Made by a program: the position numbers and the translations under genes. The notes under the pieces were generated by a model. That model saw only the letters and a program-made list of their open reading frames with translations. It made no database searches and had not been told where the DNA came from. 47,172 nt of DNA from Mesotaenium endlicherianum (Eukaryota): contig WELA01003381.1 of the NCBI GenBank assembly GCA_009602735.1, positions 1 to 47,172 on the forward strand, in the 5' to 3' direction. Positions 1 to 45,560 of this stretch are shown here, in pieces. Each line of letters opens with the position of its first letter. Positions within the stretch are counted from its first letter, which is position 1.

Positions 1-77
1 TTGTGTTCAAAGATCCTTGTCTTGAATAGATAAAGTATTCTGTTTTACTAAGTACTTTATCTATCTGTTTCACTTCA
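1..77 (+). repeat. 3' end of an LTR (family L3), truncated by window start
   Basis: 1-70 matches 47103-47172 with one mismatch and is the reverse complement of 17481-17558. Ends CACTTCA (the other copy has CACTACA), a TG...CA LTR-type terminus. Confidence 0.8.
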
Positions 78-170
78 CCTACCATCATAACACAAACTTA
101 CTTCTCTTCCTGCATCTCCTGTGACAAAGATTGAAACCCTATCAACTTGTGCCCCGGTTACATGTGCAGG

Positions 171-467
171 ATGGCTCTTACCACACAAAAAGAAGACAGA
201 AAGCGCAAGGCAGAAGAAGCCAGGAGGACAATGGAGCAATACCAGAAAGAGCTGGCGGCGACGTCCCTCAATAGGAGAGAACAAAAAAGGGTCCGCAAAC
301 AACAAGAGGCGGCAGAAGAAGTACAGAGGAAGAAGGAGCAGGAGGCGGAAAATCTCAGGAAGGCTGAGGAGGAGAGACAAAAGAAAGAAGAAGTGGCGGC
401 GGCAGAGGAGGAGAGAAGGAAGAATGCTGAAGCTGAGAAGCTTGGTGTATACCATGGAGTCTCATGA
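171..467 (+). pseudogene. Truncated charged coiled-coil ORF resembling the N-terminus of the chromovirus extra 3' ORF at 38990
   Basis: RKRKAEEARRTMEQYQKELAATSLNRREQKRVRKQQEA vs KRKRRAEEAHAEYLQFRGDIESSSISARESQRLQQQREA. Both ATGs sit in the context GCAGGATG. Confidence 0.45.
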
Positions 468-580
468 CATCACTTAGGTGTCATCGTGCCTCTTGGTAAC
501 ATAATATATATAATATATGTATATAGATATATATATATATGTTATATAAAACGCGCTATGTATTTATGTATTATAATCGA

Positions 581-2103
581 CGTCGCGACTGCTATCCACT
601 TGACGGTGCCGCACGCGCAGCGCAAGTCACGGTCGCCCAGGTACGGGAAGTCAGCATTGACTCACAGACCAGAGGACCGAGTCAGCGGTCATGTTGAAGT
701 CGTTGTCACTGTCAAAGTGGTCACGACACGTCACACCCACACCCAAAACGGGATGGGGATGTGGACCGAGTGGGCAGCCGAAAGGCTAGGGGCATGGAAC
801 CAGCAATGAGCCAGCCTAGCGAGTGCCAAGAAAGGTACTGATCAATCGGCTATTCAAGCCAAGTACAGCGGGGACGTTGCAAAGGGCGTTGAGTGCCGCC
901 TTGGCTAGGCCCTCAGGTGACTGGTCACGGCCTGAGCGTTCATCCTAAATGTTGCCAGCCAGCCACATAGGCGTGATTGTCAGGTGGAAGGCTAAGTGGT
1001 CACGCGCAACAATCCTAATGCATGCATGCATGTTGAATGACAACTTCTAAGCTGTGTGAGAGCTGCTGGGTAAGGACGGCATGCAAGCTAAGCGCTGTGA
1101 CTAAGCACTGGTATTCTCGAAAGAGGACAGTGTGTGGTGCTTGTGAAAGGCACGAGTCCTGCCATAAGCTGCCTTATCCTTGCTCGCATTGTTGTCAAAG
1201 GAAGCTGAAGAAGCAGAAGGAGTGCAAAGAAGAAGGAGTTCCCAAGGCCATAGAAGGGCCGAGGTGCCACGCTTCTACCGACGCTAAAAGATTTCTTCTT
1301 AAGTGTATCATAGAAAGGTTAGGCCTCAGGAGTTCCCAAGAGAGGATCTCGCTGGTGGAAAGTAGAGAGCTGCAAAATAGAATCTGTTAGGAGATTAGCG
1401 CAGATTGAGGTCAAATGCCGCAAGCGTGCGAGGGTCACTTAAAATGGTGAGTGCTGTGTTAGTCTCCAAGTTCTCAGAAGTCTCCATTGTCGAATTGCTA
1501 ATAGCAAGAGTAGTATTAACAAGTAAAGCTCTCAGTGAAGAACTGAGTGAGCCCAGCCAAGCACTGAAGAACTGTTAAGGCGCGGTGTTGAGCGAAGAGC
1601 TCAGACCAGGCCAGCATAGATGTGCAGTTCAGAGTTTTGTAAGCTGTGACTCGTGGAAGTTAAGCGAAAGTCTTGAAGGGCGATTTTCTCTGAACTTGAC
1701 ATTGCCTGTTAAGCTGCTTAGACGTGATTTCTGCAAACTACAAACTTGTTCATTCTGTAAACCCTCAACTTGGGCGAAAGCCTGTGTGGAAGTAAGACGC
1801 TTCTGTCCTTGTAAGGGAAATTGAAGATAAGCTATCTTTTCGAAAATTTCTTGCTAAGTGTTGAATGAGGAACTGGTTGAACATGGGAAGCACTGAGTGT
1901 GGGATGCCTCACCGCATGATGCAAGTGCAAGAAGACCAGGAATGGGTCAAACCCCAACCAGTCTGTCACTGACACACGTGCAAGGGACGATCAACCCGGT
2001 CGATGCCCACGTGCAGCGACGCACCGACACGTCAACCAAGTCGAAGGCACACGTGCTGAGAAGCCACGCACGCGCCAGGGGTCCGTCGCTGTTAGGCACG
2101 ACA
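581..2103 (+). repeat. Isolated ~1.5 kb unit of LTR family L2 (segments B+A of the DNMT-Gypsy LTR)
   Basis: Reverse-complement homolog of 18284-20600 and 20603-20947. Termini (C/T)GTCGCG...CACGACA. Flanks TCGA/TCAA are a possible 4-bp TSD. Sits in TA-rich DNA. Confidence 0.8.
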
Positions 2104-2490
2104 TCAATAATACAATATATATAGCCTTGACATATACATATGTATACGTATATACATTCCTGTATATGTACAAACAATATCTATACGCAAAATGCAAAGT
2201 ATAGCCCGTATATATACACGTGTATGTACTCTTACGAACTATGCATATATGCGATGCAAAATTGCAAACCGTAGCTCATATATATACACGTATGTATATA
2301 ACCAAATGAGCTTTGCAATGTTGCGAGACATCAAGCCATAATATATATAAATACATATACATATTACTTAATACGCTTGCATGCAATAGTGTGACTCGTT
2401 AACCTTATATGTAATAATACACAAATGTATATTATTACAGATTACACACTAAAGCGAAACATTGAGCTATAATGTGTACGTGCATATACA
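2104..2490. repeat. AT-rich/(TA)n region with degenerate tandem units; continues 497-580; possibly the decayed LTR of the adjacent Gypsy
   Basis: Repeated tatatatacacg and gcaaaatgcaaa motifs; lies directly 3' of the decayed minus-strand integrase/chromodomain. Confidence 0.4.
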
Positions 2491-4284
2491 CTACGCTCTT
2501 TGTCACTTGCCAAATGACAAACCAACAATATAATTTTCAACAAATCGCATTAAGGGTTATACAAAGTTCCCAGAAGAAAATTGTACATATATTTTAGAGT
2601 GCAACGGTGTTCGAGAACACCCTCATTACTCACACGACTTTCTTGTTCGAGTTTCAACTCCGGTGGATGAGGTTGATAACTACCTTCATACCTAAACATT
2701 GAGTACATCGACAGGGAACACAAGTGATCCCGCAAGGCAATAACGTTTGCTTGCTGGCACTGGAGCGGTAAGGTTGTAGTATGAACAGAATATTGTCGCC
2801 TAACGCAAACCTTGGCGCATCATGTGCGTGTCAATAAATTTCTTCGTGTTTATCTTGAGCGGCTACCAAAGCCATTGCCTGTGTGTACATTTCCAAAGAG
2901 AATGAACAGTTGGCGTGCACTGAAACTCTTAGGTTGGCATCCCCAGCTTCACATTGTGAACTAAGTCGGAAAGCGGGGTGTAAGAATGCCTTTCATGACT
3001 TCTTAAGAACAAAAATGACTTAATACCTTCCGTCCAAACATTATTAACTGCAAATCTTGCGAGGGTATCTCAATCATGTTGAAGATCCACATAATGCGTG
3101 GGGAATCACTGCAAAACAGGGTTCAGTTGTTCTGTTTGGCGATGTGTCTGCGAATGAAAACTTATGGACATCTTGAAGTGCGTACCAATCACAAGACACT
3201 TCATGGAAGAAATGACTTGTAAATTTGATACAACGAGCACTTACAATGCCCTTGCGCATCCATGCGACTTGAAGTCACTATCAATAAAAAGACGCGCAGT
3301 CTTTTTGACAACAAGCGGCGGCGTGGTGGGCACAACGTGCATCACTTGGTGAAAGAATAAACTTTTTGTTTAACACCACTTGATGACCCCTTAGTGTAGA
3401 ACGCATGTTCACGATACAATCAAGGCTAATACGCTTTACAGGCCACTGGCAAGCTCTAATGGATGCAACTTTCAAGCTGGCAACGTATTGCCTTGTTTTT
3501 TCGCTGACAAGTTGCACAGTTGATGAAATACTCCTTAACACCAACCTTAAGGGACTGCCACAGGTTACCCTTCATGCAACAAACAAGGCAGTTTTGGCAG
3601 TACCATAACGACCAAGTAAGGAGAGTCATGCGCTGCACATAGTAGCACATACGTTACTTTGGCCTTCTGGGATCACAATGCACCCATTGTGCCACCAAAA
3701 TCCCTTCTTAAACAAAGTTAGAGACTTAATTCCAATTATTCAAATTGCACATCACGACCGCTACACGATTCAAGACAATACCAAGGAGATGTAGGAAAAA
3801 CGGATCCTCAGTGTAGCCATCCTTGATCATTTGATGCAGGTCAAATGAAAAAGAATTAGCTATGCTACCTGAAATGGGTTTGCTCGCGTCACCAGGCTCA
3901 TTTGGTCTAGACGCGTGCGTGGATACAGCAAAATCAAGGGTGGCCACCCCTGAAGCCTGACCGTTTTGTTCTACATGCCCAGCTACGGGTCTCATCAGCA
4001 AGACTACATGATGGAGATTCGACTGAAAGGATCAGCAACATTGTTGCAACCAGGGCGATACGCCCATTGAAAGTGGAATCATTGTAAGAACTCAGAGCAG
4101 CGTGTGTGCCTTCTTGATAATGTTGGTTGCTATTGGAAGAAGGTAACCAGACAGTAGTTCGTAACAACTGCGAGGCCCTTGAGCGTTCCAATCAGCTTCA
4201 CCAGACTCCTTTCAAGCGTTTTAATTGCTTAGAGCTCGCGCTCTATAAGTGAGTGATTATGTTCGGCAGTGTTCAGCTTACAAC

Positions 4285-9177: not shown

Positions 9178-9897
9178 TGAAATGAATCGACTTACCAATA
9201 GGCGAATAACAATTAATGAAGATCTTTATATTAGCCAGTAATCTTTATGTTATTTTTTGTTAACTGATTAAACAGCAAAAAGACAACACACTAGCAGTGG
9301 ACAATACTCACAAGTCAAATGCAAGTAAAGTAGCATCAATAATGCAATCAGTAAACTCGTACATAAGCAAGGCTAGAAGACAGTGTGTGTCAATGGCTTC
9401 TCGCCTTGGATTCAGATATCTCTCAGTAAGCAGTACAAGAGAGTTGGCCTCGTTTCCAAATGCCGAACTCGAGACCAATATCTAGCATATGTATATGGAA
9501 TGAGTTTACAGTTCAACGGCAAGTGCGATGGCACCGCCTACCCGGGAGTTAACCACGTTGGTAGGATCTCGGTTAACCAAATCCACCGCCATCTCCCATC
9601 ATCCCGAATCGCCATCCATCCTAAGGATGTCATGTGGCCATTCATCTAGCACACCACACTTAGATGCATATCTAGGCAGTTTGCTGCTACCGAGTACGGA
9701 AGTCAGCTGGCTGTCAAAGAATGTGTCAGCAAGCTGTCCTAAGTTGACTTCAGCCTGCTGCTCTCGGCTGAGTCATTAAATTGATAAGTATATAAAGTCC
9801 AGCAGAATGAATTTTGATTAAAGTTCAGCAGGTTGAAGTTAATTAACTAATACATACAAATGAATATTATATAATATCAATATACTGATTCATTACA
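9178..9897 (-). repeat. Solo LTR, family L1 (LTR of the chromovirus at 32808-41485)
   Basis: TGAAATGAATCG...GATTCATTACA; reverse complement of 19756-20464. Flanks ATGGG/GTGGA match only imperfectly. Confidence 0.9.
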
Positions 9898-10029
9898 GTG
9901 GATGGGACGGGTGGGAAATATAAATAAAACCCCCGCTGATCCCTCATTTGCAACGGGACAAAAAATGGCTCCTACGGTTGCAAAAATTGACTTGACATGT
10001 GCGAGGGGGACTAATAAATTGTCGCCCTT

Positions 10030-10385
10030 AATCGCAAAAAGTCCACAGATTTTTGTAAAATCCGAACTCCCCTACCTTGGGTTTTACCAAATAAAACCCT
10101 CATATGTGCAACGCGATACAAAGTCCACATACAATCTCAAATCTTGAGTGTAACACGTGGGCGGGTGACTGACACCTTTGATCACAAAAGTCAACCAAGG
10201 GTAGTCCACAGATTTTTGTGAAAACCAAACTTCTTGACCTTGGGATGTACATGTAAATCCCATGCGTCTGCAAAAATCGACCAAACATGTGAAAGGAGGA
10301 CTCACAAAGTCCCCTAATCCATGAAATGTTGACTAGGGGAATGCCACAGATTTTCGTAAAATTTGGGTTTCCCTATGGTGGAATT
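10030..10385. repeat. Three degenerate ~150-bp direct repeats upstream of the transposase (possible subterminal repeats)
   Basis: CCACAGATTTT(T/C)GT(A/G)AAA cores at about 10043, 10206 and 10344. Confidence 0.55.
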
Positions 10386-12328
10386 TAACTAATCAAATAC
10401 CCTCTTTATATGCTGGTGGTATATAACGACCAGCAGGAGCATTGCTGGGGCCAAAATTGGCCTCCAGTAGACCTTCAAAAGGTCACGTGACAGCACAGGT
10501 GGTCCGCCGAGCTTGTCGGCCAGACTGAACGGGAAGAGGGAGCCTCTAATAAAAGAAAGTCCCCCCCCCCAAGCGACTGACCGGAGCGGCCGAGGTCATA
10601 AACGGGCCCACAGCGGACCTTTTTTTTGGCCACCAAGGGGACCCGTAAGGTCCCCCGTCATGAAAGCAATCCTGCCGATCCACCTGGCGAGATCGGGCGG
10701 GCAGGAGGAGCCCGTGAAAGATCCCCCCCACTCTAAAAACTTACTAATATATATGCTGGCGTATGCAGACGCCAGCAGCGACCACAAAAGGCCAAGGCAA
10801 ACATGCCCAGCCGTACATCAAAAAACGTCAAGATGACGCGACACTGCGCCGATATAACGTCACCACATGCAGCCCAAATGCCCATTTTTTGGACACTTAG
10901 GTACTTTATAGCGCCATTTGCGGCGGTTTTATCGGAATGGTATGAAATCTGGACAACTAAGAGATAACCCCCATATAAAGGCCTCTCTAAAGTTTCAAAC
11001 ACAGCTGACATATTTTCCATAAGTTATTACACTTTTAGTAAATTGAAGAATATGTCAACAAAAGTGGAAATTGTCACTTTCTCTCATTCTTGCTGCTTCA
11101 CACAAATGACCATCATTTCTTCAAAAAGTTCCTAATGGACTCCATTTTGAGAGGTTACTAAGGACCCTCATAGGTAGCCATGAAATTAAAAATATATTAA
11201 TTTTCATAGAATCACTTTAAGTTATGGACCTCCAAAGTTTGCCATGTGGCGCTTTTCACACATATGAAGAGTGGCCGTCCGTAAAATGCGGTATTCTTGT
11301 AGTACGGATCTGAAAATTGTTTTTTTGGATTTTTTATGCCCCCATAGAGCTATTGATGAAGTTTTGGGTCATTCCATTCAGTGAGACCCAAGATATGCAC
11401 ACAAACTGAAATCTACAAAAGTAAGCGATAGTTGGAAAAATATTACATGTTGCACTATTCTTTCACTTCATCAGATGGCCATAACTTGTACTCCACTTTT
11501 TTGATTCCCCCCAAATTTTTAGGAGGCATTAAGGATCCAACTGGGTAACCATGGATCAAAAAAAAATCAGTTTGCATCAAACCACACCAGGCTGTGAGCC
11601 TCCAAAATGTGACATATGGAGTTTCTCGCACATGTGAAGCATGCCAGTCCGTACAATGCAGAAACACTTGGAGTACGGATCTGAAAATGGTTCTACTAGA
11701 TTTTGCACCCCCCCATAGTATTACTGGTCAACTTATAGCCCATTCTAAGCACCACAGCCCAAGATAAGGTCCATGAGCTACATATGCAAAAGTAGGCGAT
11801 AAGTCGCCTACTTCTTGAATTGTGACTTTTTTTCATGCATGTGTTAACAACTTGGCATTGTGTTATGCTAGTACTTTGCATGATTTTTCTTCTATGTAAG
11901 AGGATTCCATAACAATTTCAAGTTTGAAAGTTGAAGGTGTTTTCAATCTTGAAGAGTTTTTTGAAGTTTAATGAAAATTACGCGTAAAAAACCTGACATT
12001 GTAGTTTTCACACTCTCATAAGTCTTGCTACATGTGCATTTCAATGTATGCCACATTTTTGGTGTGTAGGCAGATGTGAACTCTACATGTTCGTATAAAT
12101 TTTTTTCCTAAAAAGCAAAAAATGTTTTTTAGAATTAAAATTCAAAAATAAAAAATACCAAAGAATTGCTGAACCAACATTTTACCACCTACCTACCTAC
12201 CAATCCGCCTATAACTCTGTACACATTCATACAAATTTCTTTTTCATCATGAATCTTGTAGAGTCTGTGTCCCAGGTAGAACTGCACCCATTCCTAGAGC
12301 CAAAAAGCATCATGATCAACCCAATCAA

Positions 12329-14608
12329 ATGACATTACCAAGAGTGCAAATTAACCCAAACATGCCTAGAGGAGCAAGTGGCAAATTTCTGAAGAGGAAG
12401 AAAACAGGTGCTGAGAATGCACCTGTAGATACTTCAAAGAGGCTAGAGAGTAAAGTAGAGAGATACAAGTCTGAAATGCTAAAATATGCAGATGAAAACG
12501 GAAGCCTGAAGAAGAAAACAACTGATAGGGAGGTACAGGTTGCTCGGCAGTTCATGGGCATGAAGAAAGACTTGAGAGGAGCTAAGAGAGAGATAAGGTA
12601 CCTGAAGCAGAAGGTGTCTATGGCAGGCCCTCAAATTCCTCCAACAAAGCGTCGTAGAGTAGGTGGAGGATCTGCAAGAACATGGCAAAGAATGAGCAAT
12701 GACCTGAAGCTATTTATGGGGGACAAGTTTGGATGTGAGACAAACATGACCAAGTCATTGACAGCCTTCTTGAACAAGCCAAAGAACAAAGACATGCTGG
12801 AAGCTATTACAACAGAATTGCACCTGAAGCCAATCATAGAGGAGGCTACAGTGAAGCAAATACAGGCGCAGTGGGATGACAGGTTAGGGCTTGCTATCAA
12901 GTACAAGTCGAAGCTTTCTTAAGAGCAATACCAAATGCTTGTCAACATCATGTCAAAGACATACTCTCAAGCAACAGGACTATAGGAGCCCAACACCAAG
13001 ATTCCCCTTCCCAAGCTGCTTTCCAGGAGGAAAGTAAAGAACCTGGCAGCCAAGATCTATGCTCAAGTGGGACCCCAAGAGAGTGCAGATGGGCTGACAG
13101 TGACCTTGTCATTGCAAGAGACTTTAAGACAACGCATACTAGAATTGCAGCTCCAACCAGGCAGAGTAGTAAGCGTGCAGATTATAGGAGACGCAGCAGC
13201 ACTCCACAGGGGAGTGGACCAGACTACAATAGCTGTCAAAATTATAACAAAGGACAGCTTGGGCATGACAAACTCAGCAGCTAATACTTGCACCCTCGTA
13301 TGCTTTGAAGGTCAGGATGACTACAATAGCATACAGGGAGTGGCTTCAAGGCTACTGGAGGAAATGGGCACTGCCATTACAGCAGGCCTGCATGTAGCAA
13401 AGGACCTATTCAGAGTCAAGTTCTATCAAGGTGGCGATTACGAATTCAGTAACAGCTTGTTTGGGCTGACTGGAGCAAGCTCAACATACCCGTGCTTATG
13501 GTGCCTATGCACGTCGAAGGACATCCATGACAGGTGTCACCGCGGTGCCCTTTGCACCTTAGAGGGGATGAAGGCTGCAGCTCATGCCCCTGACTTGGGC
13601 AAGTTGCCAATGACGTGTCCACACAGCTCAAAAGATTTTGAGAGTATGTCAGACCTGGACAATGACATCATAAAGACAACGCGGGGCAAGCCACAGAAGA
13701 AGAGTAGATTGGACTACCAACTCCAGCACCAAGGGCAAAGGCATAAGAAGCCAGCATTGTTTAATATACCTCCCAGTGACTGTGTTGTGTTCATATTGCA
13801 CTTGAACTTGAGAATCTCAGCTACACTGCATGAGAGAACTTTGCATGCATTCTTACCAGCAGGGCAGGACAAGGAGGATGAATTCTATAAGCTCTTGAAA
13901 GAAAAGGTGAAGGCATCAATACCTAAGGAGGCTGTAAAGGCCTTGAAGAAAGGCGAGAAGAGAAACAGGGCAGCCAAGCCAAGCTTCATTGGACGGGAGT
14001 GCCACCGCCTCCTCGAGCACTTTGTAAAGCTGGCAGAGTGTGTCTTTTGTAACCTGCCTGATGATGCAGAACAGCTACAAGCCGTGTTAGAAGCATGGGA
14101 TGCTTATGGAGTGTGCTTGGCTGGTCTTATGGAGCCAATATCTGCACTAGACACGGGCAACGAGAGAGAAGCTAAAGCTTCTCTTGTGGAGGCCCTTGCT
14201 GAAGACTATGAGGACAAGTTTGTAGTTGCTTGCGCAACAGACCACATTACTGAGTACATGCACATTTCGAAGGGCCACATAGGGGATAATATCTGGAGAC
14301 ATGGGGACCTAGATCAATTCAGTGGGGAAGGTATAGAGGCATTGCATCAATGGAGGAAATCAGCCAAGACCAACAAGAGGAAGGTGATGGTGGACGCTAC
14401 AGGACGAGTGTATTGCAAAGGGAGAATAGGCCAAACAACACATCAAGAGAGTGGGAAGAGAGCTCTATCTACCATCATAGAGCTACCATTGAGTAGAAAT
14501 GAAAGACAAAAGAGGAAGAAGGTGGTGTTCAAGCGACGACAGTTGGCACCAGTCGTGACAAGATCTAATCCAGCAGACATGAAAGAAGCAATTGGAGCAG
14601 GAGAGTAG
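12329..14608 (+). pseudogene. RAG1/Transib-like (Transib/Chapaev-type) DDE transposase, ~760 codons, two in-frame stops
   Basis: ORFs 12329-12922 and 13067-14608 are in one frame (stops at 12920, 12983). LAIKYKSKLS*EQYQML ~ RAG1 LAIRVNTFLSCSQYHKM. IIGD (D, 13190). GGDYEF..LFGLTGASSTYPCLWC (D, 13436; CxxC). LHLNLRI. TEYMHISKGH..RHGDLDQFSGEGIEALH (HxxxxH; E, 14336) ~ RAG1 TNYFHKTLAH..RDGSIGAWASEGNESGN. Confidence 0.85.
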
Positions 14609-15790
14609 CTAGAATACATGCTTAGTGTAGGAAGAAAACATTAAATGAAATGTACAATATGTACGTATGCAGCTCACCTGATTAGCTGGAGTCTTTCTTC
14701 TGTTGGCAACTACCTCGCGCGCTCTCTTCATAAGCTCTTTTGATGACAAGTGCTTGCCTTCTCTTACCAAAGCTTGCATTGCTTGAGCATGCTCCTTCTC
14801 TTGTTGCGCAATCAACCTGTCTTCCTCTTCTCTATGTTGAAGCACTTGCCTCACTTCATCTGCAACCTTAGCTATTGCCTCTCTCATAATTTGTATAGCA
14901 GCTTGTTTAGCTAGCTTAGAGGTAGTAGGAGGTTGAGGTGCAAAAGTAGCATGAGAATCTGCTTTTCTTTTAGCAGGTGTGCGCAGATCCTGTGATCTTT
15001 GCATTCTCAACTCACGAGCTGCTAAATCAGCAACTTCTTGCAACTCACAGGCTCTCTTGTAGTTCTCCCTCTCTCTCTCAATCCTCTCTTGTTCCTTCTG
15101 TAGCAAGTTAGCTTTTGCAATTTGTGCTACCTCTATTATGGCATCCATAATTTCAAGCCCATGTGCTTGCATCCTAAGAGGGTAATCTGCAAGTTTATAG
15201 TGTATATGGGTGCTAGTATCAACATGATGATGTGCCTTCCAAACAAGTCTGTCATTACAGTGGTCAGGGGCCATCACAACATGCCCCCCCCTGTTTAAGA
15301 CTGAAAATGAAAACTTTAAAGTGAAAGTTTTCTCTCCAGACTTGTTCATCCTCCATTTCATAAAAAGGGGGGACAATAACTACCACCTCTCCTGATTTTG
15401 GGAGGTAAATTTGGCTGCCCCATAGCCCAAATCAGCATTCACAGATTGAAAGCAAAGAAGAGCATCTAAATCCTCTATAGTCCAACACACTCTTCGAATA
15501 CTTTGAGACACCATGGGCTCGGTTTTGGTAATATAGTGGGACACTTCTTTGCCTACATGTGCAAAAAAAGTCTCAAACAAGTTCTTAGGCACGTTCACAT
15601 CACTAATGCAAACACTTGCTTGAGGAGTAGAGTCTATCCTCTTATAGACACGTCTTCTATAGTTAACAAGCCAGCCCATAGGGTCCACTTCTACAGCCCG
15701 CATGAAAGACTTGTTGCACTTCTGACAGTTGGAAAGTCCCACACCTCTTGATGCACCACAGTTGCTGCAGTAATTGGGAAATGACGCCAT
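14609..15790 (-). pseudogene. Unknown protein (~390 codons, one in-frame stop): N-terminal C4 zinc ribbon, globular middle, coiled-coil C-terminus; convergent partner of the transposase
   Basis: ORFs 15380-15790 and 14609-15376 are in frame across a single TAG. CSNCG...SNCQKC near the start. E/Q/R/A-rich helical C-terminal half. Confidence 0.65.
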
Positions 15791-16462
15791 GCTATAGAGG
15801 GCGGTCTTCCCGACCTGGTTCTAATCGTCCTAGCCCCACCCCAAAAAAGAATGAAGGTAAGAGGTGAATAAGTAGTAATATAGTACTAAAGGTGTATTAC
15901 TATTGCTCTCCAGCTCGATCTTAGGTAAGTAGGAACTTATCGTTGATGTAATAATGAATCCTCAAATATGCTCCCAACCCTAAAGACTGCCCCCCAATCT
16001 GCCTCCAAGGCAAAAGTTAAGTAAATATGATTTTTTCCCTTCTTATGGGGCTTATGTTGATACTCACAATTGACTGTGTTTCCCAGGCTGCTCGTACCCC
16101 TCCTCACAAAATTATCTCTAAATATCTAAAAACGAATTTGTCCAAAAATCTATGGGGCAATTATGATCCAAAGCCGTTTCTGGTTCTTTCAACGCAAAAA
16201 ACAAGCATTAAGTGGCAAACGCGACTTTTCGGCCAAGTCTGTTCGTCGTCAGGGGTCCTATTAACAGACGCGCACGTGCACGGAATGAATATTGAAACAT
16301 TTTTTTTTTTGAAATGGTTTAAATCAAATAAAGCGGAACGAAGCGACTTGGCTCTATCTACTTAATTTATATATCCTCCTATTATTTGAATTTTGCAAAT
16401 ACGGCGAAATACGCCGCGTTATACGCCGCCAAAGGACCAATACGTGTGTATTTCATAACTAG

Positions 16463-17195
16463 GCATACAGTGACCTTTTGTCATGGAGTACTTGTGGCCA
16501 ATTGATTCATTTAAAGTCTCAAAAATTTTGGAAGAAAAAAAGGCAAAACACTCAAGGACCATCAAACTTTGGCTTCTCCTCTTTCCGTCTCACCCATCTC
16601 TCAATATGATTTTGGAGCACCAATCTTTGATGAAAGATCAACAATAGCCTTGTAGGCAGATAACATGTCTTTCCATTTGAAATTACATTGATCCGGTGTT
16701 CTAGCGATCCCATAAAGACCCATTAATTCAAAACTTGCTAGCCACTTCTCAACTGCTAATTGGTGAACCGATTTCCTCTTGGTAGAGAACCCCCCTACCC
16801 CCCACGAATTTACCTTTTGCTAAGGGTTTCATACCGGCTGCACTCTTCTTGCCCTTAGTTCGCTCTCTCATTTTCATACCTGCCCTTGCACAAGCTTCTA
16901 CAAGACAAAGTATGGCTTCCTCCAACCATAGCTCTTCCTTGGTCGGAGGAGACGGTGCCACTAGTGGTGCGACGGGAAGAGCAACTAATGGAGCAGTTGA
17001 AGGACCTTGTCCTCCAATGCCGACATCAGAATCTGATAAACCCACAAAGAGCAGGACTTGTGCCTCTTCACTAGGATGCGCCGAGTTTCAGAGGGCTCCT
17101 ACATTAACCTCTTGGACCACAACGGGTTGCATATCTTGCATCTCGGCCTGACCTTATTCTATATCTAGGGGAGCTGAGCGTGAAGAAGAAGCCAT
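16463..17195 (-). pseudogene. Trihelix-type Myb/SANT-like DNA-binding protein pseudogene
   Basis: ELWLEEAILCLVEA..., then after a frameshift EKWLASFELMGLYGIARTPDQCNFKWKDMLSAYKAIVDLSSKIGAPKSY*EMGETER. Fits the trihelix pattern R..QC..KW..L...YK.I.D....SYW.M...ER. Confidence 0.75.
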
Positions 17196-17480
17196 TTGGG
17201 TGCCGGAAGTGAAAAGTGGAAGCTGGGTAAGCGAGAATGGTGAAATGAGGCTTGCTCTCGCTACATTAATGCAAATTGGGATAAGGGTCGTTTTATTCAT
17301 TCATGAGTAATTCGTGGATTGGAGGATTGGCGCGAGTTTGCAAACACTTAACCAAAGTTCGGGCGAAAGTTGGCACATGCAGGCAAGTGTTTGAAAATGG
17401 CTACAAAGTACGCTAAGCAATACTTTACAACGAGTTGGAGAAGTCGTTTTTGACTGGTACGTCAGGTACTTCACACGACC

Positions 17481-17981
17481 TGTAGTGAAACAGATAGATA
17501 AAGTACTTAGTAAAATAGAATACTTTATCTAGTCAAAACAAGGATCTTTGAACACAAGTGGTAGCTTCTTGAAAGGGAGATGGCTTTTTCAAAGTTGATA
17601 TATTTCTGGAACTTGGCAAGTACAAGAGTGATTTTGGAATCCCTTTCTATGTTCTAGCTCTTGTTTATATACTTGCTACATAAGTTATTTCTAGTAAGGT
17701 GCATATTGATGTGTTGGCACCCAACACATCCAAAACTTGCCACCTCTTTCTAGAATAATGTAAACATGTCATTTTGACCTAAAAATGGCACATTTGACTT
17801 TTGCCACATGGAGTTCTTCTAAGGCCTTCCTCTAACTTTGAAAATGCCTTAGAAGGTTCAAAGGATATGAACCAAGTCACTAGAGTATCTATTCACACTT
17901 GAATACACACAATACTACTCAAAATGTATTTAAAAGCATTGAAGTAAAGCAAACTTCTATAATACAATTAAAATCACCACA
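17481..17981 (-). repeat. Solo LTR, family L3 (~500 bp)
   Basis: TGTAGTG...CACCACA termini; 5-bp TSD CGACC/CGATC; reverse complement of 46691-47172. Confidence 0.85.
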
Positions 17982-18245
17982 CGATCAATGACTCCGAAAT
18001 AGAAAGCGAGCAGGTCTTTGTCGATTCTTGAACACTCAATTGACATCTCAAGGCCAAATCGCGTTTTTACCTTTTCTCTTCACTTTTCGTCAGAATTTAA
18101 TTTTAGACGTCAAATAGTTGAATAAAAAAAAGGCTCGCCAAAGTGCACTATAGACGACGAATGTGGACCATTTTTTGAACTACAGGGTATCGCTAGGCAC
18201 ACGCGGGTACAGTACAATAGAATAGAATCCCTCAATTTGGCCCAG

Positions 18246-20947
18246 TGTTAAGGATGCGAATAGATGGGGGAAGCGAGAAGATTGCCTAACAGCGTCAAAC
18301 CCCTGCCACGTGCGTGGCTTCTCAGCACGTGTGCCTTCAACCTGGTCGACGTGTCAGCGGTCCTTCTCGCGTGCGGGGATTCCCTGGTCGTTTGGTCAGT
18401 GCGTTGTTGCACGTGGGAAATTGACTGGGTTGATCGACCTTTGCACGTGTGTCGATGGCAGGCTAGCTGGGGGTTGACCCATTCCTAGTCTTCCTGCACT
18501 TGCATCATGCGATGAAGCATCCCACACTCAGTGCTTCCCATGCTCAACCAGTTCCTCATTCCACACTACCAACTCTTAGTAGAAATTTTAAAAAAGTTAG
18601 CTTATCCTCAGTTTCCCTTACAAGGACAGAAGCGTCTTACTTCCACACAGGCTTTCGCCCAAGTTGGGGGTTACAGAATGAACAAGTTTGTAGTTTGCAA
18701 AAATCATGTCTAAGCAGCTTAACAGGCAATGCCACATTCAGAGGCAATCGCCCTTCAAGGCTTTCGCTTTACTTTCACAAAGTCACAGCTTACAAAACTC
18801 TGAAACTGCACATTTATGCTGGCCTGGTCTGAGCTCTTCGCTCAACACCGCGCCTTAACAGTTCTTCACTGCTTGGCTGGGCTCACTCAATTCTTCACTG
18901 AGAGCTTTACTTGTTAATACTACTCTTGCTATCAGCAATTCAACAATTGAGACTTCTGAGAACTTGGAAACTAACACAGCACTCACCATTTTAAGTGACT
19001 TTCGCAGGCTTGTGGTGTTTGACCTGAATCTGTGCTAATCTCCTAACAGATTCTATTTTGCAGCTCTCTACTTTCTACCAGCGAGATCCCATCTTGGAAA
19101 CTCCTGAGGTTTAACCTTTCTATGATACACTGAGAAGAAATCTTCCAGCGGCGCCAGAAGCATGGCGTCTCGCCTCTTCTGTGGCCTTGGGAACTCCTTC
19201 TTCTTTGCGCTCCTTCTTCTCCTTTCCTTCTGTACCTGTGCTCCTTCAGCTTCCTTGACAATGATGCGAGCAAGAATGAGGCAGCTTCAGGCAGGACTCG
19301 TGCCTTTCGCAGGCACCACACATTATCCTCTCTTGAGAATGCCTGTGCTTAGTTTCAGCGCCTAGCTTGCAAGCCGTCCTTACCTAGTAGCCCTCAAACA
19401 GCTTTAGAAGTTGTCACTCAGCATGCATGCACGCCTTGTGACTGTCATGCGTGACTGCTTAGCCTTTCAGCTGGCAATCACGCCTATGTGGCTGGCGGCT
19501 GGTAGCGTTTGAGATGAACGCTCAAGCCGTGGCTAGTCACTTGAGGGTCTTGGCCGAGGTGGCACACAATGCCTCTGCAACATCCCTGCTGTACTTGGCT
19601 TAGATGGCCGATTGATCAGTACCTTACTTGGCACTTGTTGGGCTGGCTTATTGCTGGTTCCAGGCCCCCAGCCTTTCGGCTGACTACTCCGTCCAAATCT
19701 CCATCCATCCCTGGGTGTGGGGTTTGACGTGTCGTGACCACTTTGAAGGTGATAATGTAATGAATCAGTATATTGGTAGATATAATATTCATTTAAATAT
19801 AATAGTTAACTAAGTTGAGCAGGCTGAACTTAGTTAGTAATGAGCCTGCTGGACTTTACATAATTACCAGTTTAAAGACTCAGCCGAGAGCAGCAGGCTG
19901 AAGTCTACTAGGTCAGCTTGCTGACACATTCTTTGCCAGCCTGCTGCCTTCCGTACTCGGTAGCAACGAACTGCCTAGATATGCATCTAGGTGTGGTGTG
20001 CTAGAGGAATGGCCAGATGACATCCTTAGGATGGATGGCGATTCGGGATGATGGGAGATGGCGGTGGATTTGGTTAACCGAGGTCCTACCAACGTGGTTA
20101 ACTCCCGGGTAGGCGGTGCCATTGCACTGGCCGTTGAATAGTAAACTCATTCCATGTACATATGCTAGGTATTGCCCTCGACTTTGGCATTCAAAAACGA
20201 GGCCAACTCTCTCGTACAGCTTACTGAGAGGGATCTGAATCCAAGGCGAGAAGCCATTGATATGCACTGTCTCCTAGCCTTGCTTATGTGCGAGTTTACT
20301 GATTGTATTATTGATGCTAGTTTACTTCCATTTGACTTATGAGTATTGTCCACTGCTAGTGTGTTGTCTTTGCTGTTTAATCAATTAACAAAAAATACCA
20401 TACGGATTACTTGCTGATATAAGGATCTTCATTAATTGCCTATTTGGTAAGTCGATTCATTTCAGATAACGAATTTGACATAATCGCTGACTGAGATAAC
20501 TCAGTCCTTTGGTCGATGAGTCAATGCTGACTTTCCGTACCTGGGCGGCCGTGACTTGCGCTGCGCGTGCGGCACCGTCAAGTGGATAGCAGTCGCAACA
20601 GCTGTCGTGCCTAACAGCGTCGGACCCTTGGCACATGCGTGGCTTCTCAGCACGTGTGCCTTCAACCTGGTCGACGTGTCGGCGGTCCTTCTCGCGTGCG
20701 GGGATTCCCTGGTCGTTTGGTCGGTGCGTTGCTGCACGTGGGGAATGGACTGGGTTGATTGACATTTGCACGTGTGTTGGTGGCAGGCTAGCTGGGAGTT
20801 GACCCATTCCTAGTCTTCCTGCACTTGCATCATGCGGTGAAGCAACCTACACTCAGTGCTTCCCATGCTCAACTAGTTCCTCATTCCACACTAACAACAC
20901 TCAGTAGAAATTATTGAAAAGTTAGCTTATCCTCGATTTCCCTTACA
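18246..20947 (-). repeat. 3' LTR (family L2) of DNMT-Gypsy 1, with an internal ~340-bp direct repeat and a nested solo LTR
   Basis: Minus strand starts TGTAAGG right after the PPT and ends CCTTAACA. 18284-18622 repeats 20608-20947. Confidence 0.7.
19756..20464 (+). repeat. Solo LTR, family L1, nested in the L2 LTR
   Basis: TGTAATGAATC...GATTCATTTCA with a perfect 5-bp TSD GATAA; L2 sequence is continuous across it. Confidence 0.95.
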
Positions 20948-32260: not shown

Positions 32261-32807
32261 TTATAGCAAGGTCCTCTCGGCTTGACATTTTGCTGCATGT
32301 GCTGGTTCTGCACAAGTCCCAACTTCATAGGTACTGGACCTTGTCCACTCGTGCTTGGCGCTTGAGAACCAAACTGTCGATGTCCTCCAGAGTTTCGGCT
32401 GCCCCACTGCCTCCGACCAGCGTCGACCCTTGTTGCCAATGCCATCCTTTCTCCAAGATTGGTAGGGTCCTTGAGCGCCACTTCCTTGGCCACGGTTGGC
32501 TTGAGTCCCCTCTTGAACTTGTCCATCATCTCCGACTCGTGCATAGATGGACATCAAAGCACCAGCTCGTTGAAGCGCAAAACATACTCCTGAACGCTTC
32601 CTCGTTGACGAAGGCGCACCAATAGATCTCGAGCAGTAACCTTGGGTGCAATAGGTTGAAATTGCCTCTTCAAACCTTCAAATAGCTGATCAACAGTAGC
32701 AGGTTCTCCAGACAGCTGCTCCTGTCGCTCATACCAAGCTCCAGCACACTTCTTCAGCAAAGTAATAACAAAGGCGACTTGCCTGTCAGGCCTGAGCGCA
32801 TAATATT
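32176..32807 (-). pseudogene. gag: Gag (5'-truncated by insertion)
   Basis: Retrotrans_gag-like LRQRGSVQEYVLRFNEL, KFKRGLKP, GPVPMKLG, CCHC knuckle. Confidence 0.9.
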
Positions 32808-33383
32808 TGTAATGAATCAGTATATTGGGTGATACAATATTCATTTAAATAATAAAGTTAAATAAGTTCAGCCTGCTGAACTTTAGTTAACATCGAGTCT
32901 GCTGGACTTTATTAAATCATCAGTTTAATGACTCAGCCGGAAGCAGCAGGCTGAAGTCAACTTAGGTCAGCTTGCTGACAAATTCTTTGACAGTCAGCTG
33001 ACTTCCGTAGTCGGTTGCAGCGAACTGCCTAGATATGCATCTAAGTGTGGTGTGCTAGATGAATGGCCAGATGACATCCTTAGGATGGATGGCGATTCGG
33101 GATGATGGGAGATGGCGGTGGATTTGGTTAACCGAGGTCCTACCAACGTGGTTAACTCCCGGGTAGGCGGTGCCATTGCACTGGCCGTTGAACAGTACAC
33201 TCATTCCATGTACATATGCTAGGCATGCTAGTCTACTCGCATTTGACTTACGAGTATTATTCACTGCAAGTGTGTTGTCCTTTGCCGTTTAACCAGTTAA
33301 CGGGAAATACCATAAAGATTACTTGCTGATATAAAGATCTTTATTAATTGTTAATTGCCTATTTGGTAAGTCGATTCATTTCA
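32808..33383 (+). repeat. 5' LTR (L1) with an internal deletion
   Basis: TGTAATG...ATTTCA. Shorter than other L1 copies; deletion lies between ATGCTAG microhomologies near 33220. Confidence 0.9.
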
Positions 33384-40720: not shown

Positions 40721-40734
40721 TAAGTTGGAGGGAT
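40721..40734 (+). promoter_or_regulatory. Polypurine tract preceded by an 8-bp hairpin
   Basis: TAAGTTGGAGGGAT then the LTR TG; hairpin TGTTGTCG-AGG-CGACAACA at 40699-40717. Confidence 0.75.
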
Positions 40735-41485
40735 TGTAATGAATCAGTATAAAAGTTGATATAATGTTCATTTAAATATAATAGTTATATAAGTTCAGCC
40801 TGCTGAACTCAAGTTAATAATCAGTCTGCTGGACTTCATATCTAATATCAGTTTAATGACTCGGCCGAAAGCAGCAGGCTGAAGTCAACTTAAGTCAGCT
40901 TGCTGACACATTCTTTGACAGCCAGCTGACTTCCGTACTCGGTAGCAGCNNNNNNNNNNNNNNNNNNNNNNNNNNNNNNNNNNNNNNNNNNNNNNNNNNN
41001 NNNNNNNNNNNNNNNNNNNNNNNNNNNNNNNNNNNNNNNNNNNNNNNNNNNNNNNNNNNNNNNNNNNNNNNNNNNNNNNNNNNNNNNNNNNNNNNNNNNN
41101 NNNNNNNNNNNNNNNNNNNNNNNNNNNNNNNNNNNNNNNNNNNNNNNNNNNNNNNNNNNNNNNNNNNNNNNNNNNNNNNNNNNNNNNNNNNNNNNNNNNN
41201 NNNTATTCGGAAACGAGGCCAACTCTCNNNNNNNNNNNNNNNNNGATCTGAATCCAAGGCGAGAAGCCATTGATACGCACTGTCTTCTAACCTTGCTTAT
41301 GTATGAGTTTACTGATTTGCATCATTGATGCTAGTTTACTCNCATTTGACTGACGAGCATTATTCACTGCTAGTGTGTTGTCCCTTGCCGTTAAACCAGT
41401 TAACGGAAATACCATAAAGACTACTTGCTGATATAAAGATCTTTATTAATTGTTAATCGCCTATTTGGTAAGTCGATTCATTTCA
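40735..41485 (+). repeat. 3' LTR (L1), containing assembly gap 40950-41203
   Basis: TGTAATGAATC...GATTCATTTCA. Confidence 0.9.
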
Positions 41486-44400
41486 CGCTCTAGACGAGCG
41501 GCCCGGCGGCATCGTCCTCGTCGAGCTCTTCGCCGGCATTGCCACCGGGTTACTCGCGACCTTACAGGCCGGCATCCCGGTGCGCCGCTACGTCTACGTC
41601 GATCCCGATCCTGAGGCCCAGCAAGTGGCCCGTCGGCAGATGGCGTTGGGTCACGAGCGATTCCCTGACCTCCTTCCGCCGCGCTCAGACAGACTGGCCC
41701 ATGGACATCCGCGACATCACCGTTGAGCATGTCCCTTGACTTGGGCCCATTGACCTCGTCATCGCCGGTTGGGAGTGCCAGGGCTTCTCCAGAGCCGAGC
41801 GTGGCAGGGGGCTCAGCGATCCCCGCACGGCCCTCTTCTGGCACTTGCTCCGCGTCCTCAACATTGTTGAGGATCGCGAGCCGCCACACACACTCGCGTG
41901 GGGCCTAGAGAACGTGGCCGCGCGCCACGATCGCCGACCCGAGGTTAGCGCCGACTTCGCTCTTTGCAGCAGCTACGTCGGCCGCGAGGCCGTCATCGAC
42001 GCTGCCCAGATTGGTTCCTTCGCGCACCGCGTCCGCGCCTACTTCACAAACCTGGCGATGCCAGTTACTCTCGAGGCGTTGGCCGCCTCTCATCCACGTC
42101 ACGCACGCACCGTCGACTCCATCCTTGATGCCCCGTGTCTGGCCCAGCGGGTGACTGCACTACCGCACCACTCCATGGCGCAGTATGAGGTCCTGCATGA
42201 CGTCCCTCGCGCGCTGCCAACTTTTGTCAGCCGCTACGACAGCGACGCCTTCGTCGGAGATCAGCGCGGGATGGTCATCGACTTGGAGACTGGCATGTTT
42301 GACAGGCCGCGCCCTGCGGAGATGGAGCGTGCCATGGACTTCCCGCCGCATCTCACACAGGTGGACGGTCTCACTGAGGTGAACCGCATTCGCCTCTTGG
42401 GGCAGGCGATTGACGCAAACGTCCTCACGTGGATTCTGCTGCAGACACAAGCCTTGGCACCTCTCTACGCCGCAGCCTGGCATCCCGAGCTGCCTTGGCC
42501 TGCCGATGATATGGACGATGACTCCACCGACGATGACCACCCGGCCCCGCCTGGCCCGACATGGCATCTTCAGCGCGCAGGTCCTGCACCGACGGCGCGC
42601 GCGCGCGCACCCTTCCCACCACCGCGCAGAGAGGACTCTGGTTCGCTAGGGGGGGGCCGGCGGAGAGAGGAGTCCTCACAGCGACCCAGGGAGTCCCGGT
42701 CACCTTTTGTTTTTCCTCGCTCGCAGGCAGATGGTGCCAACAGGCAGCTGGCCGCGGCTGCCACGGAGCAGGTACCCGCGGCAGGCCGAGCGCCAACCGC
42801 TGCATGGCAGGTGACACCTGCAGTCCCACAGTCTACCCCAGCGGCAAGACAAGAGACTGCAGCTGCAGGTCAGGCAACGCCACCAGCTCCATTGACATGG
42901 AAGCTGGGGGGGACACTCACCAAGGCATAGGCTGCACAGTTGACGTCACTGCTGGACGGGAGGCGCAGCACCAGCTTTGCCAGCGGCATGCACGATCTTG
43001 GGCGCTATGGGGGGACCCCATGCGGATTACTCTCACGTTGCAGGAGCCTATTTTCCTGAAGCGTTATCGCTACAGCCACTTCGAGGATGGCTTGAACAGC
43101 GCGCAGACAGGCAAGTTGGAGGACAGCCGGCTCATTCAGGAGTCCTCCTCTCGCTATGCCGCACCCACGGTCATGCCAGCCAAGAAGGATGCCTCGGGCA
43201 ACTGGTCCGAGAAGAGGATGTGCGGTGACTATCGTAGGCTGAACGAGGTCATCGAGCAGGACAGATATCCGATGCCGACGCCTGACGAGATCTTTGACGA
43301 CATTGGCACGTGCACTTGGTTCTCAGTGCTGGATCTGCGTCAGGGCTTCAACCAGATTCCCATCGCCGAGGAGGACCAGCATAAGACGGCATTCAGGGGA
43401 GCACAGCGGCTCTATGAGTGGGTGGTGATGCCGTTCGGATTGAAGAACGCGCCAGCTACCTTTCAGAGGGTGATGGATAAGGAGCTGGTCGGGCTGTCCT
43501 TTGCCCGATGCTACATCGATGACGTGCTCGTCTTCAGTCAGACGTTTGAGGAGCACGTGGCGCAAATCACTGCTGTCCTCGACCGCTTGGAGGCCGCTGG
43601 GCTCAAGTGCCATCCAGGCAAGTGCACTTTTGGAACCCGCGAGGTGGAGTACCTTGGCCACTTGCTCTCCTCCAGCGGCTTGGCACCCCAGCTGGCGAAG
43701 ATCTCGGCCATCACAGGCATCCCACCTCCTACAAATTTCTCGCAGCTGCGGGCCTTCCTCGGCATTGCCAACTACTACCGCCGCTTCGTGCCAGGGTTCA
43801 GCGAGCTAGCCAAGCCGCTCAACGACTTGCTCCGCAAGGGCGTTGCCTACGTGTGGGGACCAGAGCAGCAGGCGGCATTCGATAAGCTCAAGGAGCTGCT
43901 GGTGAGCGCTCCTGTGCTTTGGCGTCCTGACTACGCGAAGCCCTTCATCCTCCACACCGACTGGTCGCAGGCAGGGCTGGGCGCTGTGCTGGTGCAGGAG
44001 CATGACGGCTTCGAGCATGTGGTGGCCTACGCCAGCCGCAGCAACAACCGCGCGGAAGGCAACTACGGCTCCTACGAGGGGGAGTGCCTGGCAGCGGTCT
44101 GGGTGATCGTGCACTTCAGGCACTATCTCTACGGCACGCACTTCTGCCTGGTCACCGATCATCAGCCACTTAAGTGGCTCATGACGTCGGAGCGCTTGAC
44201 CGGCGAGTACGCACGGTGGGCGCTTATCTTGCAGGAATACACCTTTAACGTGCACCACCGTCCAGGCTCGACCAACCTGGACGATGACGGTCTCAGCCGT
44301 AACCCGCTGCCCTCCTCGAGGGATCTCACTGTGGCCCGCCACGATGAGGATGAGCCGGTGGCCTGGCACGCGGCGGCCTTCCTGGCCTTCACCGTGGACG

Positions 44401-44890
44401 ACGATGTGCGTCCCGCAGGGCTCACTAGCCTGGACATGGTCACCGTCACCACTCGGCGATTGGCCCTGGCAGCGGCAGAGGATCAGGACAGCTGGCAGCG
44501 CGGTCCCGAGGACGTGTGGGACGACGCCCCAGTGCTGCAGTACGTCACGGCCAAGGAGTTGGCACCCGATGTCAGCGCACGCGAGCGCGACCGCATCCTC
44601 AGGCGCAGTTGCGACTTCATTTTCATGGAGGGGCGCGTGCGGCGCGTGATGGCAGACGGCTCTGTCCTGGTGGTCCCCGAGCCTGCCATACGCAGTCAGC
44701 TGGTGCGCCGAGTGCACGAGTCCCTCGGGCACTTTGGTGTGAAGCGCACCCTCAGTCTTCTTCAAGCCAAATACTGGTGGCACGGCATGACTAAGGTCGT
44801 CGCCGCTGTCGTCAGCAGCTGCACTCTCTGCGACCGTGTGCGCTCGAGCTTCACAGCGCGCACCGTTGCCCTCAGCCCCCTTCCCCTATC
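41486..44890 (+). mobile_element. DNMT-carrying Ty3/Gypsy element 2 (fragment: DNMT-linker-RT-RH-IN zinc finger), GC-rich
   Basis: KKDASGNWSEKRMCGDYRRLN, CYIDD, LHTDWS, HESLGH...CTLC. Same RT subtype as element 1. Truncated at both ends. Confidence 0.92.
41487..42450 (+). pseudogene. C5 cytosine DNA methyltransferase domain within Pol of element 2
   Basis: Motif I IVLVELFAGIATG, IV IDLVIAGWECQGFS, VI GLENV, VIII HRVRAYFTN, IX RPRPAEMERAMDFP, X RLLGQAIDANV. One frameshift near 41690 and one stop at 41737. Confidence 0.92.
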
Positions 44891-45560
44891 AGGCGAGAGG
44901 CCAGGCGGTATTTCACTTGGAAACACTGACTTGTACTTTTGCAAAAGAGCAGAAAGTTCAGCTGTAAGTGTGTCTTCATGACCAGTCAAATCGAGTGTAA
45001 GCTCCTCCTTGGAGAGCTTAGTGACTGGGGAATTAGGTCGTAGTAATCCAAAGAAAACAATTTGACCTTTCTTTGCCAAACGTCTAGCTTGCTTTATGGA
45101 CAATAGAAGAGTCTTGAAGGGACTTTCTAATTCCATATCGGGCTTTAGGGATTGAAGAGTGATCTTCCTTGTCCCTTTGCGTACAATGCATGTCTTTTGA
45201 CTGAAGTCAAGCAAATGCACTTGTTTGCGTAAACCAAGTTGTTCCCAAAATTGCATCAATACCCTCGGGCAACTTAGTAACATAGAATTGTTCGTGGCCG
45301 ATGTATGATTGCACTTTGAGCTGCAACTTTATCTTTCCAAGAGTACAAGCTAAGGAACCATCGCCAAGTCGAAAGTCCTCGTTCTTGAGTGTTGGAATCA
45401 AATTCATCCTTTGTGCAAAACGTGCACTAATGAAGCTCACCGACGCGCCTGAATCAATGATGGTGAAGCATGACTTGCCTGAAACTTTCGCGTCAAACGT
45501 CATACTTAGCCCCAAAGAAGCATTATGCATCACTAGCAATGTCCTCGCCTTAAGAGGAAT
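44885..45560 (-). pseudogene. Fragment of another Gypsy pol (protease and pre-RT region)
   Basis: FTIIDSGASVSFIS...LGDGS...DAILGTTW; LLQKYKSVFPSEIPPGLSPDRG. Confidence 0.85.

Follow-up and report, generated by a model that had tools for sequence, protein, structure and literature searches.

A decayed two-gene transposon with a RAG1/Transib-like transposase and a putative accessory gene in Mesotaenium endlicherianum

A reading frame in the window (the whole 47,172-nt stretch of contig WELA01003381.1 from Mesotaenium endlicherianum analysed here) resembles the RAG1 recombinase in its catalytic and zinc-binding residues, which raises the question of what kind of transposon it belongs to and how that transposon relates to the RAG systems. 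An earlier note, made from the sequence by eye, had named the motifs of a RAG1-like transposase; all of them lie where they were read and in one frame (Table 1), with LAIKYKSKLS at 12890, CLWC at 13493, LHLNLR at 13796 and YMHISKGH at 14255. The pseudogene comprises a basic, helical N-terminus, a segment resembling the RAG1 domain for dimerization and DNA binding (DDBD), an RNase H core and a zinc domain. The reading of an N-terminus without RING agrees with a pattern search of the first 300 residues, which found a RING in 0 of 153 proteins, many of them fragments. This copy of the element is dead, inactivated by stops and frameshifts, and has no evident host function. All aligned contigs of other copies have a G at 12984 and thus lack the TAG stop. 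The CpG observed/expected ratio of the transposase gene is 0.28, as expected in a methylating host.

Table 1. Coordinates of the features of the element in the window.
Feature	Position	Strand	Details
RAG1/Transib-like DDE transposase pseudogene	12329..14608	+	one frame, 759 codons
In-frame stops in transposase	12920..12985	+	TAA 12920, TAG 12983
Catalytic D (13190), D (13436), E (14336)	13190..14338	+	conservation among homologues
Zinc ligands CxxC (13493), HxxxxH (14261, 14276); invariant His (13799)		+	
Family-specific H-CxxC-H zinc-finger-like insert	13583..13729	+	conserved columns; between CxxC and invariant His
Convergent ORF2, ~390 codons	14609..15790	-	starts 15790; indels near 15361-15413, stop 15380
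Whole transposon copy, ~5.6 kb	10864..16496 (or 16472)	+	contig depth, flanking single-copy contigs
Left terminus CACATGCAGCCCA	10864..10876	+	18 contigs diverge before 10864, agreement 0.39
Subterminal repeats, two tandem ~370-bp, 66% alike	11086..11801	.	
Preferred right terminus, reverse complement CACAAGTACTCCA	16484..16496	-	9/13 to left end
Alternative right terminus CACTGTATGCCTA	16460..16472	-	7/13 to left end

A HMMER search of 1.84 billion representatives returned 442 relatives at E ≤ 1e-3 and 87 at 1e-10, the best of them 34% identical to the window transposase. Among the best 150 of the 442, counting at each column the sequences that reach it, the catalytic triad is kept (first D 110/111, second D 132/132, E 102/102), as are the zinc Cys pair (133/134 and 131/133) and His pair (104/106 and 98/105), and the His of LHLNLR is invariant in all 119. 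The zinc domain also carries an insert that is specific to the family, with its H, C, C and H conserved in 94/101, 93/94, 94/95 and 97/98 of the same best 150 with a residue present. This stretch of the profile matches C2H2 zinc fingers in the PDB, and we infer that it forms a second zinc site, with predicted zinc binding, inside a RAG1-type zinc domain. From the second D to the E there are 300 aa in the insert-bearing family, compared to 253 in RAG1 and 206-214 in Transib according to the available text of PMC1131882. The window copy has a Ser in place of the second insert Cys and a Cys in place of the Arg that is conserved in the RT motif.

Kinship with RAG1 was detected at the level of the family. 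A 540-aa piece of the window protein alone had no match among PDB sequences, and neither this piece nor the 115-row alignment found anything in a word-index protein search; against Pfam, the window protein gave DUF1280 only (E 0.16, 12 bits, cut-off 25). When the window protein was combined with 114 homologues in a 115-sequence profile and compared with the PDB, it matched RAG1 of zebrafish and mouse (best E 1.9e-19) and BbRAG1L of ProtoRAG (1e-16), and a profile of the 75 insert-bearing sequences matched RAG1 at 6e-16, BbRAG1L at 3e-14 and HzTransib at 0.11. The printed profile alignment pairs the DDBD-like segment, both D residues, STYxCxxC, YxHxxxxH and the E with their RAG1 counterparts, bearing out the correspondences first drawn by eye. 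The equation of LHLNLR with LHCDIG of RAG1 held in part: its His is invariant, but the pair is absent from the printed alignment, and the equation also leans on what we take to be the order of the RAG1 motifs. In what is presumably mouse RAG1 numbering, the three catalytic residues correspond to D600, D708 and E962. The available text of PMC1131882 numbers the RAG1 residues 603, 711 and 965.

The AlphaFold model of the transposase (pLDDT 88.5, pTM 0.87) aligned with RAG1 (Foldseek E 2e-12; VIA Z 24.8, rmsd 3.6, 444 aligned), BbRAG1L (VIA Z 20.7, rmsd 4.0, 439 aligned) and HzTransib (Z 20.1, rmsd 4.0, 399 aligned), and at lower scores with the P element (Z 12.9, rmsd 6.9, 366 aligned), ISCth4 (Z 9.5) and Hermes (Z 8.3, rmsd 5.1, 288 aligned). 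RAG1 and DUF1280-named clusters were the top ESM Atlas matches, at 0.93. Since structures of Chapaev, EnSpm, Mirage, Plavaka, ESTA and Lanisha are absent from the fold lists, the fold supports the clan and cannot choose a superfamily. The column of RAG1 R848 has no Arg in 75 sequences and mostly S, T or N, which fits a transposase rather than a tamed recombinase. Profile and predicted fold thus support membership of the transposase in the RAG1/Transib clan, and they place it in the clan only, as the earlier note foresaw in holding Transib and Chapaev inseparable by eye. Its suggestion of a wider distribution of such elements through a streptophyte member is weakened, Transib-like proteins being already in print from 39 plant sequences (PMC9435367).

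The limits of the element were read from depth in Logan contigs (three DNA runs of one sample). Summed contig depth is ~750-4200 from 10.9 to 16.5 kb compared to ~100 outside the element, and exact single-copy contigs at depth 51-63 lie on both flanks. Summed depth is not a copy number; taken at face value, it would correspond to copies in the tens, with left ends far more numerous still. Contigs with unlike upstream sequence fix the left end as CACATGCAGCCC, starting CACATGC. At the other side, flat depth puts the right end at 16494; the 9/13 match with CAC of the preferred right terminus was reached in 123 of 5000 shuffles of 16410-16639, and the alternative end at 16472 is followed by AC, the same 2 bases as before the left end (an exact 2-bp duplication). 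A 5-bp target duplication was not found in one decayed copy, that in the window (3/5 for the end at 16496, or 1/5), and one possibly collapsed assembly, the marine relative L001 (2/5; see below); for duplications of 3 and 4 bp, the window copy reaches no more than 1/3 and 1/4, whichever candidate right end is taken. Neither end has a second copy elsewhere in the window. A 32-bp inverted repeat (10455-10486/16470-16503, 79%, E 0.011) was rejected as the element ends because the contigs fix the left end at 10864; one of its arms lies in the left flank and the other across the right end, where it bears on the choice of right end.

In three RNA runs from three studies, of which 6%, 13% and 24% were read, both genes were without coverage in X5, coverage in X11 did not extend past 12499, and diverged reads in X8 reached a depth of at most 1.4; a search for RNA datasets containing the sequence listed none. 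Stop-free copies and transcripts, to which the earlier note had looked, fared differently: the TAG is absent from other copies and L001 has an open transposase frame, but RNA is near absent. At 10863-11100, RNA reads of three studies match the left end of another copy and have one flank in common, which suggests that a host locus containing a short derivative is transcribed.

The surroundings of the element are themselves repetitive. Three copies of a ~150-bp repeat, 65% alike, occupy 9940-10413 in the left flank and resemble the subterminal array of another DNA transposon. In the right flank, 16610-16770 (- strand) looks by eye like a Myb/SANT (trihelix) segment and is possibly a decayed Harbinger-type element into which the transposon inserted. 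Very high-copy LTR-like repeats (9178-9872, 17480-18000, 19755-20470, 32807-33383 and 40734-41485) surround several decayed Ty3 elements, and the window's opening 70 bases are found again at its end.

The element contains a second gene, ORF2, convergent with the transposase, with an N-terminal CxxC..CxxC, an alpha/beta middle and a coiled-coil tail; its indels are not common to other copies. Database searches gave three matches including itself, no Pfam or PDB-sequence family beyond a weak zinc ribbon, no kelch, RAG2 or PHD signal, and nothing above 0.78 in the Atlas. A fold search on its weak model (pLDDT 45.8) gave coiled coils only (Z ≤ 5.7). The zinc ribbon at the start and the coiled coil at the end speak against a propeller, the model being too weak to decide. 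Residues 70-135 give, by eye, the impression of an RRM-like strand/helix pattern.

A metagenome scan yielded three loci, L001 and L002, both marine, and L003. The transposase ORF of L001 is open (782 aa) and 61% identical to Cymbomonas P0008, and its ORF2 is open too. DNA upstream that L001 and L002 have in common begins exactly at CACAATG / CACATCG, the far end of L001, CACATCGCACC, equals the start of L002 at 11/11, and both loci have a convergent ORF2. A profile of the L001 and L002 ORF2 scored 31.9 bits on the window ORF2 (read through with X) compared to 7.7 for the best of 1000 shuffles, and of 290 ORF pieces in the window the two from ORF2 took the top two ranks. No homology to ORF2 was detected for the convergent ORF of L003 (E 0.53), leaving the pair in two of the three loci. 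Within L001 and L002, a second common block, ACA(T/A)TTCAG..TTT, lies ~28 bases inside both ends (L001 1249-1295 and 5270-5317; L002 88-135), which suggests bipartite ends. A faint echo of it, GACACTTAGG, can be seen by eye at a matching distance from the left end of the window copy. The same short repeat, CGTCCATACGG, flanks both relatives (L001 5330-5578; L002 40-87) and hints at a preferred target or at nesting in another element. L001 also contains a 415-aa ORF at 2-1246 (- strand) whose start lies 2 bases beyond the left end of the element. It has an acidic repeat, an SLPY-type segment that is methyltransferase-like by eye, and no Pfam match.

The L001 and window transposases are only 31% identical and ORF2 has been kept in position and orientation alongside both, which argues for selection and makes ORF2, from comparison of these sequences, a likely accessory factor. 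It is somewhat unlikely, though well worth weighing, that ORF2 is instead passive cargo or a regulator of one sub-lineage and that the transposase acts alone like HzTransib. Its few homologues and the different convergent ORF of L003 would fit such a role, and Transib transposases act without RAG2 (PMC10462144, available text); the retained arrangement across so distant a pair of transposases is what favours an accessory factor.

How the family compares with known systems bears on its place within the clan. With the RAG1 core and the RAG1L of ProtoRAG (PDB 6xny, 4wwx and 6b40; PMC7204232 and PMC10462144, both in part) it shares the DDBD, D/D/E, ZnC2/ZnH2 and the fold, and with ProtoRAG also CAC-starting ends and two convergent genes within inverted ends (window, L001, L002). 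Unlike RAG1 and RAG1L, to which identity is ~14%, the insert-bearing family lacks the RING/C1-C3 N-terminus and the CCGHC tail (CxxCxxxGHxxxxC) and has an H-C-C-H insert and a non-Arg R848 column, and the 5-bp duplication was not seen; its partner gene, unlike that of ProtoRAG, has no kelch or PHD signal. The simple N-terminus, RAG1-type core, short inverted ends, CACAATG start of relatives and multicopy state are shared with Transib (HzTransib, PDB 6pqn/6pqx; Subgroups I and II, PMC9435367). In contrast, HzTransib barely matches the family profile, which matches RAG1 well, and the algal family has a longer zinc domain and a second gene. Of the traits that define Transib, the family therefore shows the RAG1-core motifs, the DDE triad and the CAC ends (ambiguous at the right end of the window copy) but departs from the single-gene layout through ORF2. 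Judging from sequence and model, the element would work like a Transib/RAG-type transposon and appears to lack defining traits of RAGL and of Chapaev.

A different placement, which we consider improbable, would make the family a branch related to Chapaev that lost its Chapa/RING N-terminus, the likeness to RAG1 being that of the whole Transib-Chapaev clan. Chapaev elements have CAC ends, and target duplications of 4 or 3 bp are typical of Chapaev and Chapaev3. They share the RAG1-type core with the algal family, and the window protein has no transposase-type Pfam signal other than DUF1280, which recurs in four of 37 homologues scanned out of the 150 (20-23 bits, cut-off 25), RAG1 appearing in one of the 37, with all of these matches below cut-off. 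Moreover, 15 of 30 Atlas matches are listed in a set with no common family that is headed by a DUF1280-named cluster. In the available text of the sources, DUF1280 is equated with Chapaev, whose known members are animal elements (Majorek 2014, PMC3985635), and the Transib superfamily is taken to include Chapaev and Chapaev3 as clades (Kapitonov and Koonin 2015, PMC4411706). Yet a pattern search for the Chapa motif (CRxCG, HPxxFCxxC; definitions from the available text of PMC1131882 and PMC4411706) found it, like the RING, in the first 300 aa of 0 of 153 proteins, full-length members included, and the second gene sets the family further apart from Chapaev. Of the proteins scanned, a single one matches DUF1280 strongly (P0147, 1.4e-12) and stands near the bottom of the best 150 of 442, and seven members of a sister clade carry the CCGHC tail, a trait tied to RAG1L and Subgroup I Transib (PMC7204232, available text; PMC9435367).

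We think it very unlikely that an existing catalogue lists this family by another CMCT name, for example as the moss superfamily Lanisha or an unnamed algal entry in Repbase or Dfam. A two-gene layout is also found in EnSpm. The available text of PMC12730594 gives the CMCT members EnSpm/CACTA, Mirage, Plavaka, ESTA and Lanisha a C(2)C and H(3-4)H in the stretch separating second D from E, and CA..TG ends; Lanisha itself is a cut-and-paste superfamily of a streptophyte with these zinc motifs (PMC12730594 and PMC8245031, both in part), and the 2-bp duplication would fit the alternative right end at 16472. Against this name, Kojima likens Lanisha to EnSpm, whereas the family profile strongly matches RAG1 directly and no EnSpm, Mirage or Plavaka Pfam came up at E ≤ 1e-3 in the 37 of 150 homologues scanned, and nesting in a known plant or algal CMC family, which the earlier note would have counted against its reading, did not come up. 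Transposase_21, DUF1258 and Plavaka Pfam families were listed for neither the window protein nor these 37 homologues nor 31 further ones, although an unlisted family is not strictly excluded. No moss occurs among the organism-named clusters described below. The available portions of PMC8245031 and of the preprint give no Lanisha features; the comparison literature also included part of 10.1101/2021.09.26.461848.

The preferred reading, a RAG1/Transib-clan element, can be set against the distribution of its relatives. Of 30 clusters looked up, seven carry an organism name; the five named ones among the 20 top-ranked clusters are all green algae (Pterosperma, three from Cymbomonas, and Mesostigma viride), and clusters from Nematostella and Plakobranchus rank far lower. 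A FastTree tree of the 108 of 153 sequences that cover more than 62% of the core, midpoint-rooted and built without RAG1, Transib or Chapaev references, places 30 insert-less proteins, that of Nematostella among them, in a single clade (SH 0.994); the protein from the window falls together with those of Pterosperma, Mesostigma and Cymbomonas (SH only 0.885). The insert-bearing and insert-less groups match each other at a profile-profile E of 6.5e-58. The insert-less clade (30 sequences, P0065-P0152) yields a profile that matches RAG1 (4e-10) and not HzTransib, and all seven of the 153 proteins with the CCGHC tail, which is absent from the window protein, belong to it; it may be Subgroup I Transib-like or an unnamed group. 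Pattern scans of viral contigs, prokaryote genomes, phages and plasmids confirmed no relative, these scans being insensitive and no proof of absence.

Range alone is not new, given the 39 plant sequences in print. Tao 2022, who described them together with a RAGL in a pelagophyte alga, named six angiosperms among the plants, and Chara, Mesostigma, Cymbomonas, Klebsormidium and Chlorophyta are absent from the readable part of the supplement (PMC9435367). A literature search that left Repbase Reports and most subscription papers outside brought up no account of a green-algal family that has both this insert and this partner. The apparent novelty lies in a green-algal lineage that is multicopy and has a zinc insert and a partner gene of its own. 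It is very unlikely that the host is no streptophyte, or that the element came in as contamination from an animal or fungus: the close sister clade does include a Nematostella protein, but a single-copy contig (16404-17506, 0 differences) links the inside of the element to its flank, these runs also contain the element in multiple copies, its nearest named relatives are green algae, and a DNA methyltransferase ORF stands before a Ty3 pol at 41740-44981, as in KnitGypsy-Dnmt3, a methyltransferase-bearing Gypsy of Klebsormidium (PMC5890265, available text). At that position (+ strand), the C5 DNA methyltransferase ORF (PF00145, E 1e-5) directly precedes a Ty3 RT-RNase H-integrase-zinc ORF in another frame, an arrangement that points toward a charophyte host but is no proof of one.

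We consider it likely that the window holds a dead copy of a multicopy two-gene transposon whose RAG1/Transib-clan transposase would have cut and pasted the element from CAC termini, probably with the help of ORF2; the named members of this lineage are green algae. By analogy with the biochemistry of RAG1 and HzTransib, which follow a nick-and-hairpin route (PMC10462144, available text), a transposase dimer would bind both CAC ends, the D/D/E triad would nick and then hairpin the flank, and the cut ends would be inserted into new DNA. Going by co-conservation only, ORF2 may be an accessory subunit in the place that RAG2 takes in ProtoRAG, its zinc ribbon and coiled coil serving for DNA or protein contact, and the insert could add a surface for binding DNA or a partner. 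The element ends, the zinc insert and the second gene all go beyond the earlier note.

A bolder proposal, which we regard as speculative and rather unlikely as a whole, is that this lineage is closer to RAG1 than the insect Transibs are, has been in green plants since before the chlorophyte/streptophyte split, and independently evolved a RAG-style layout with an obligatory non-kelch partner and an extra zinc finger. If this were true, L001 and other intact marine copies would offer a second test case for the recruitment of a partner by a RAG1-type enzyme, and the duplications that the family makes at its targets may differ from 5 bp in length.

The origin of RAG is commonly traced to a Transib that acquired a RAG2-like gene. 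In a green-algal branch of the clan, a conserved partner of another kind stands in this convergent layout, which suggests that partners were captured more than once, and the intact natural L001, with its open transposase and ORF2, makes such capture testable. For the green lineage, the element provides a multicopy, physically anchored record, set against a published plant Transib list that names only angiosperms.
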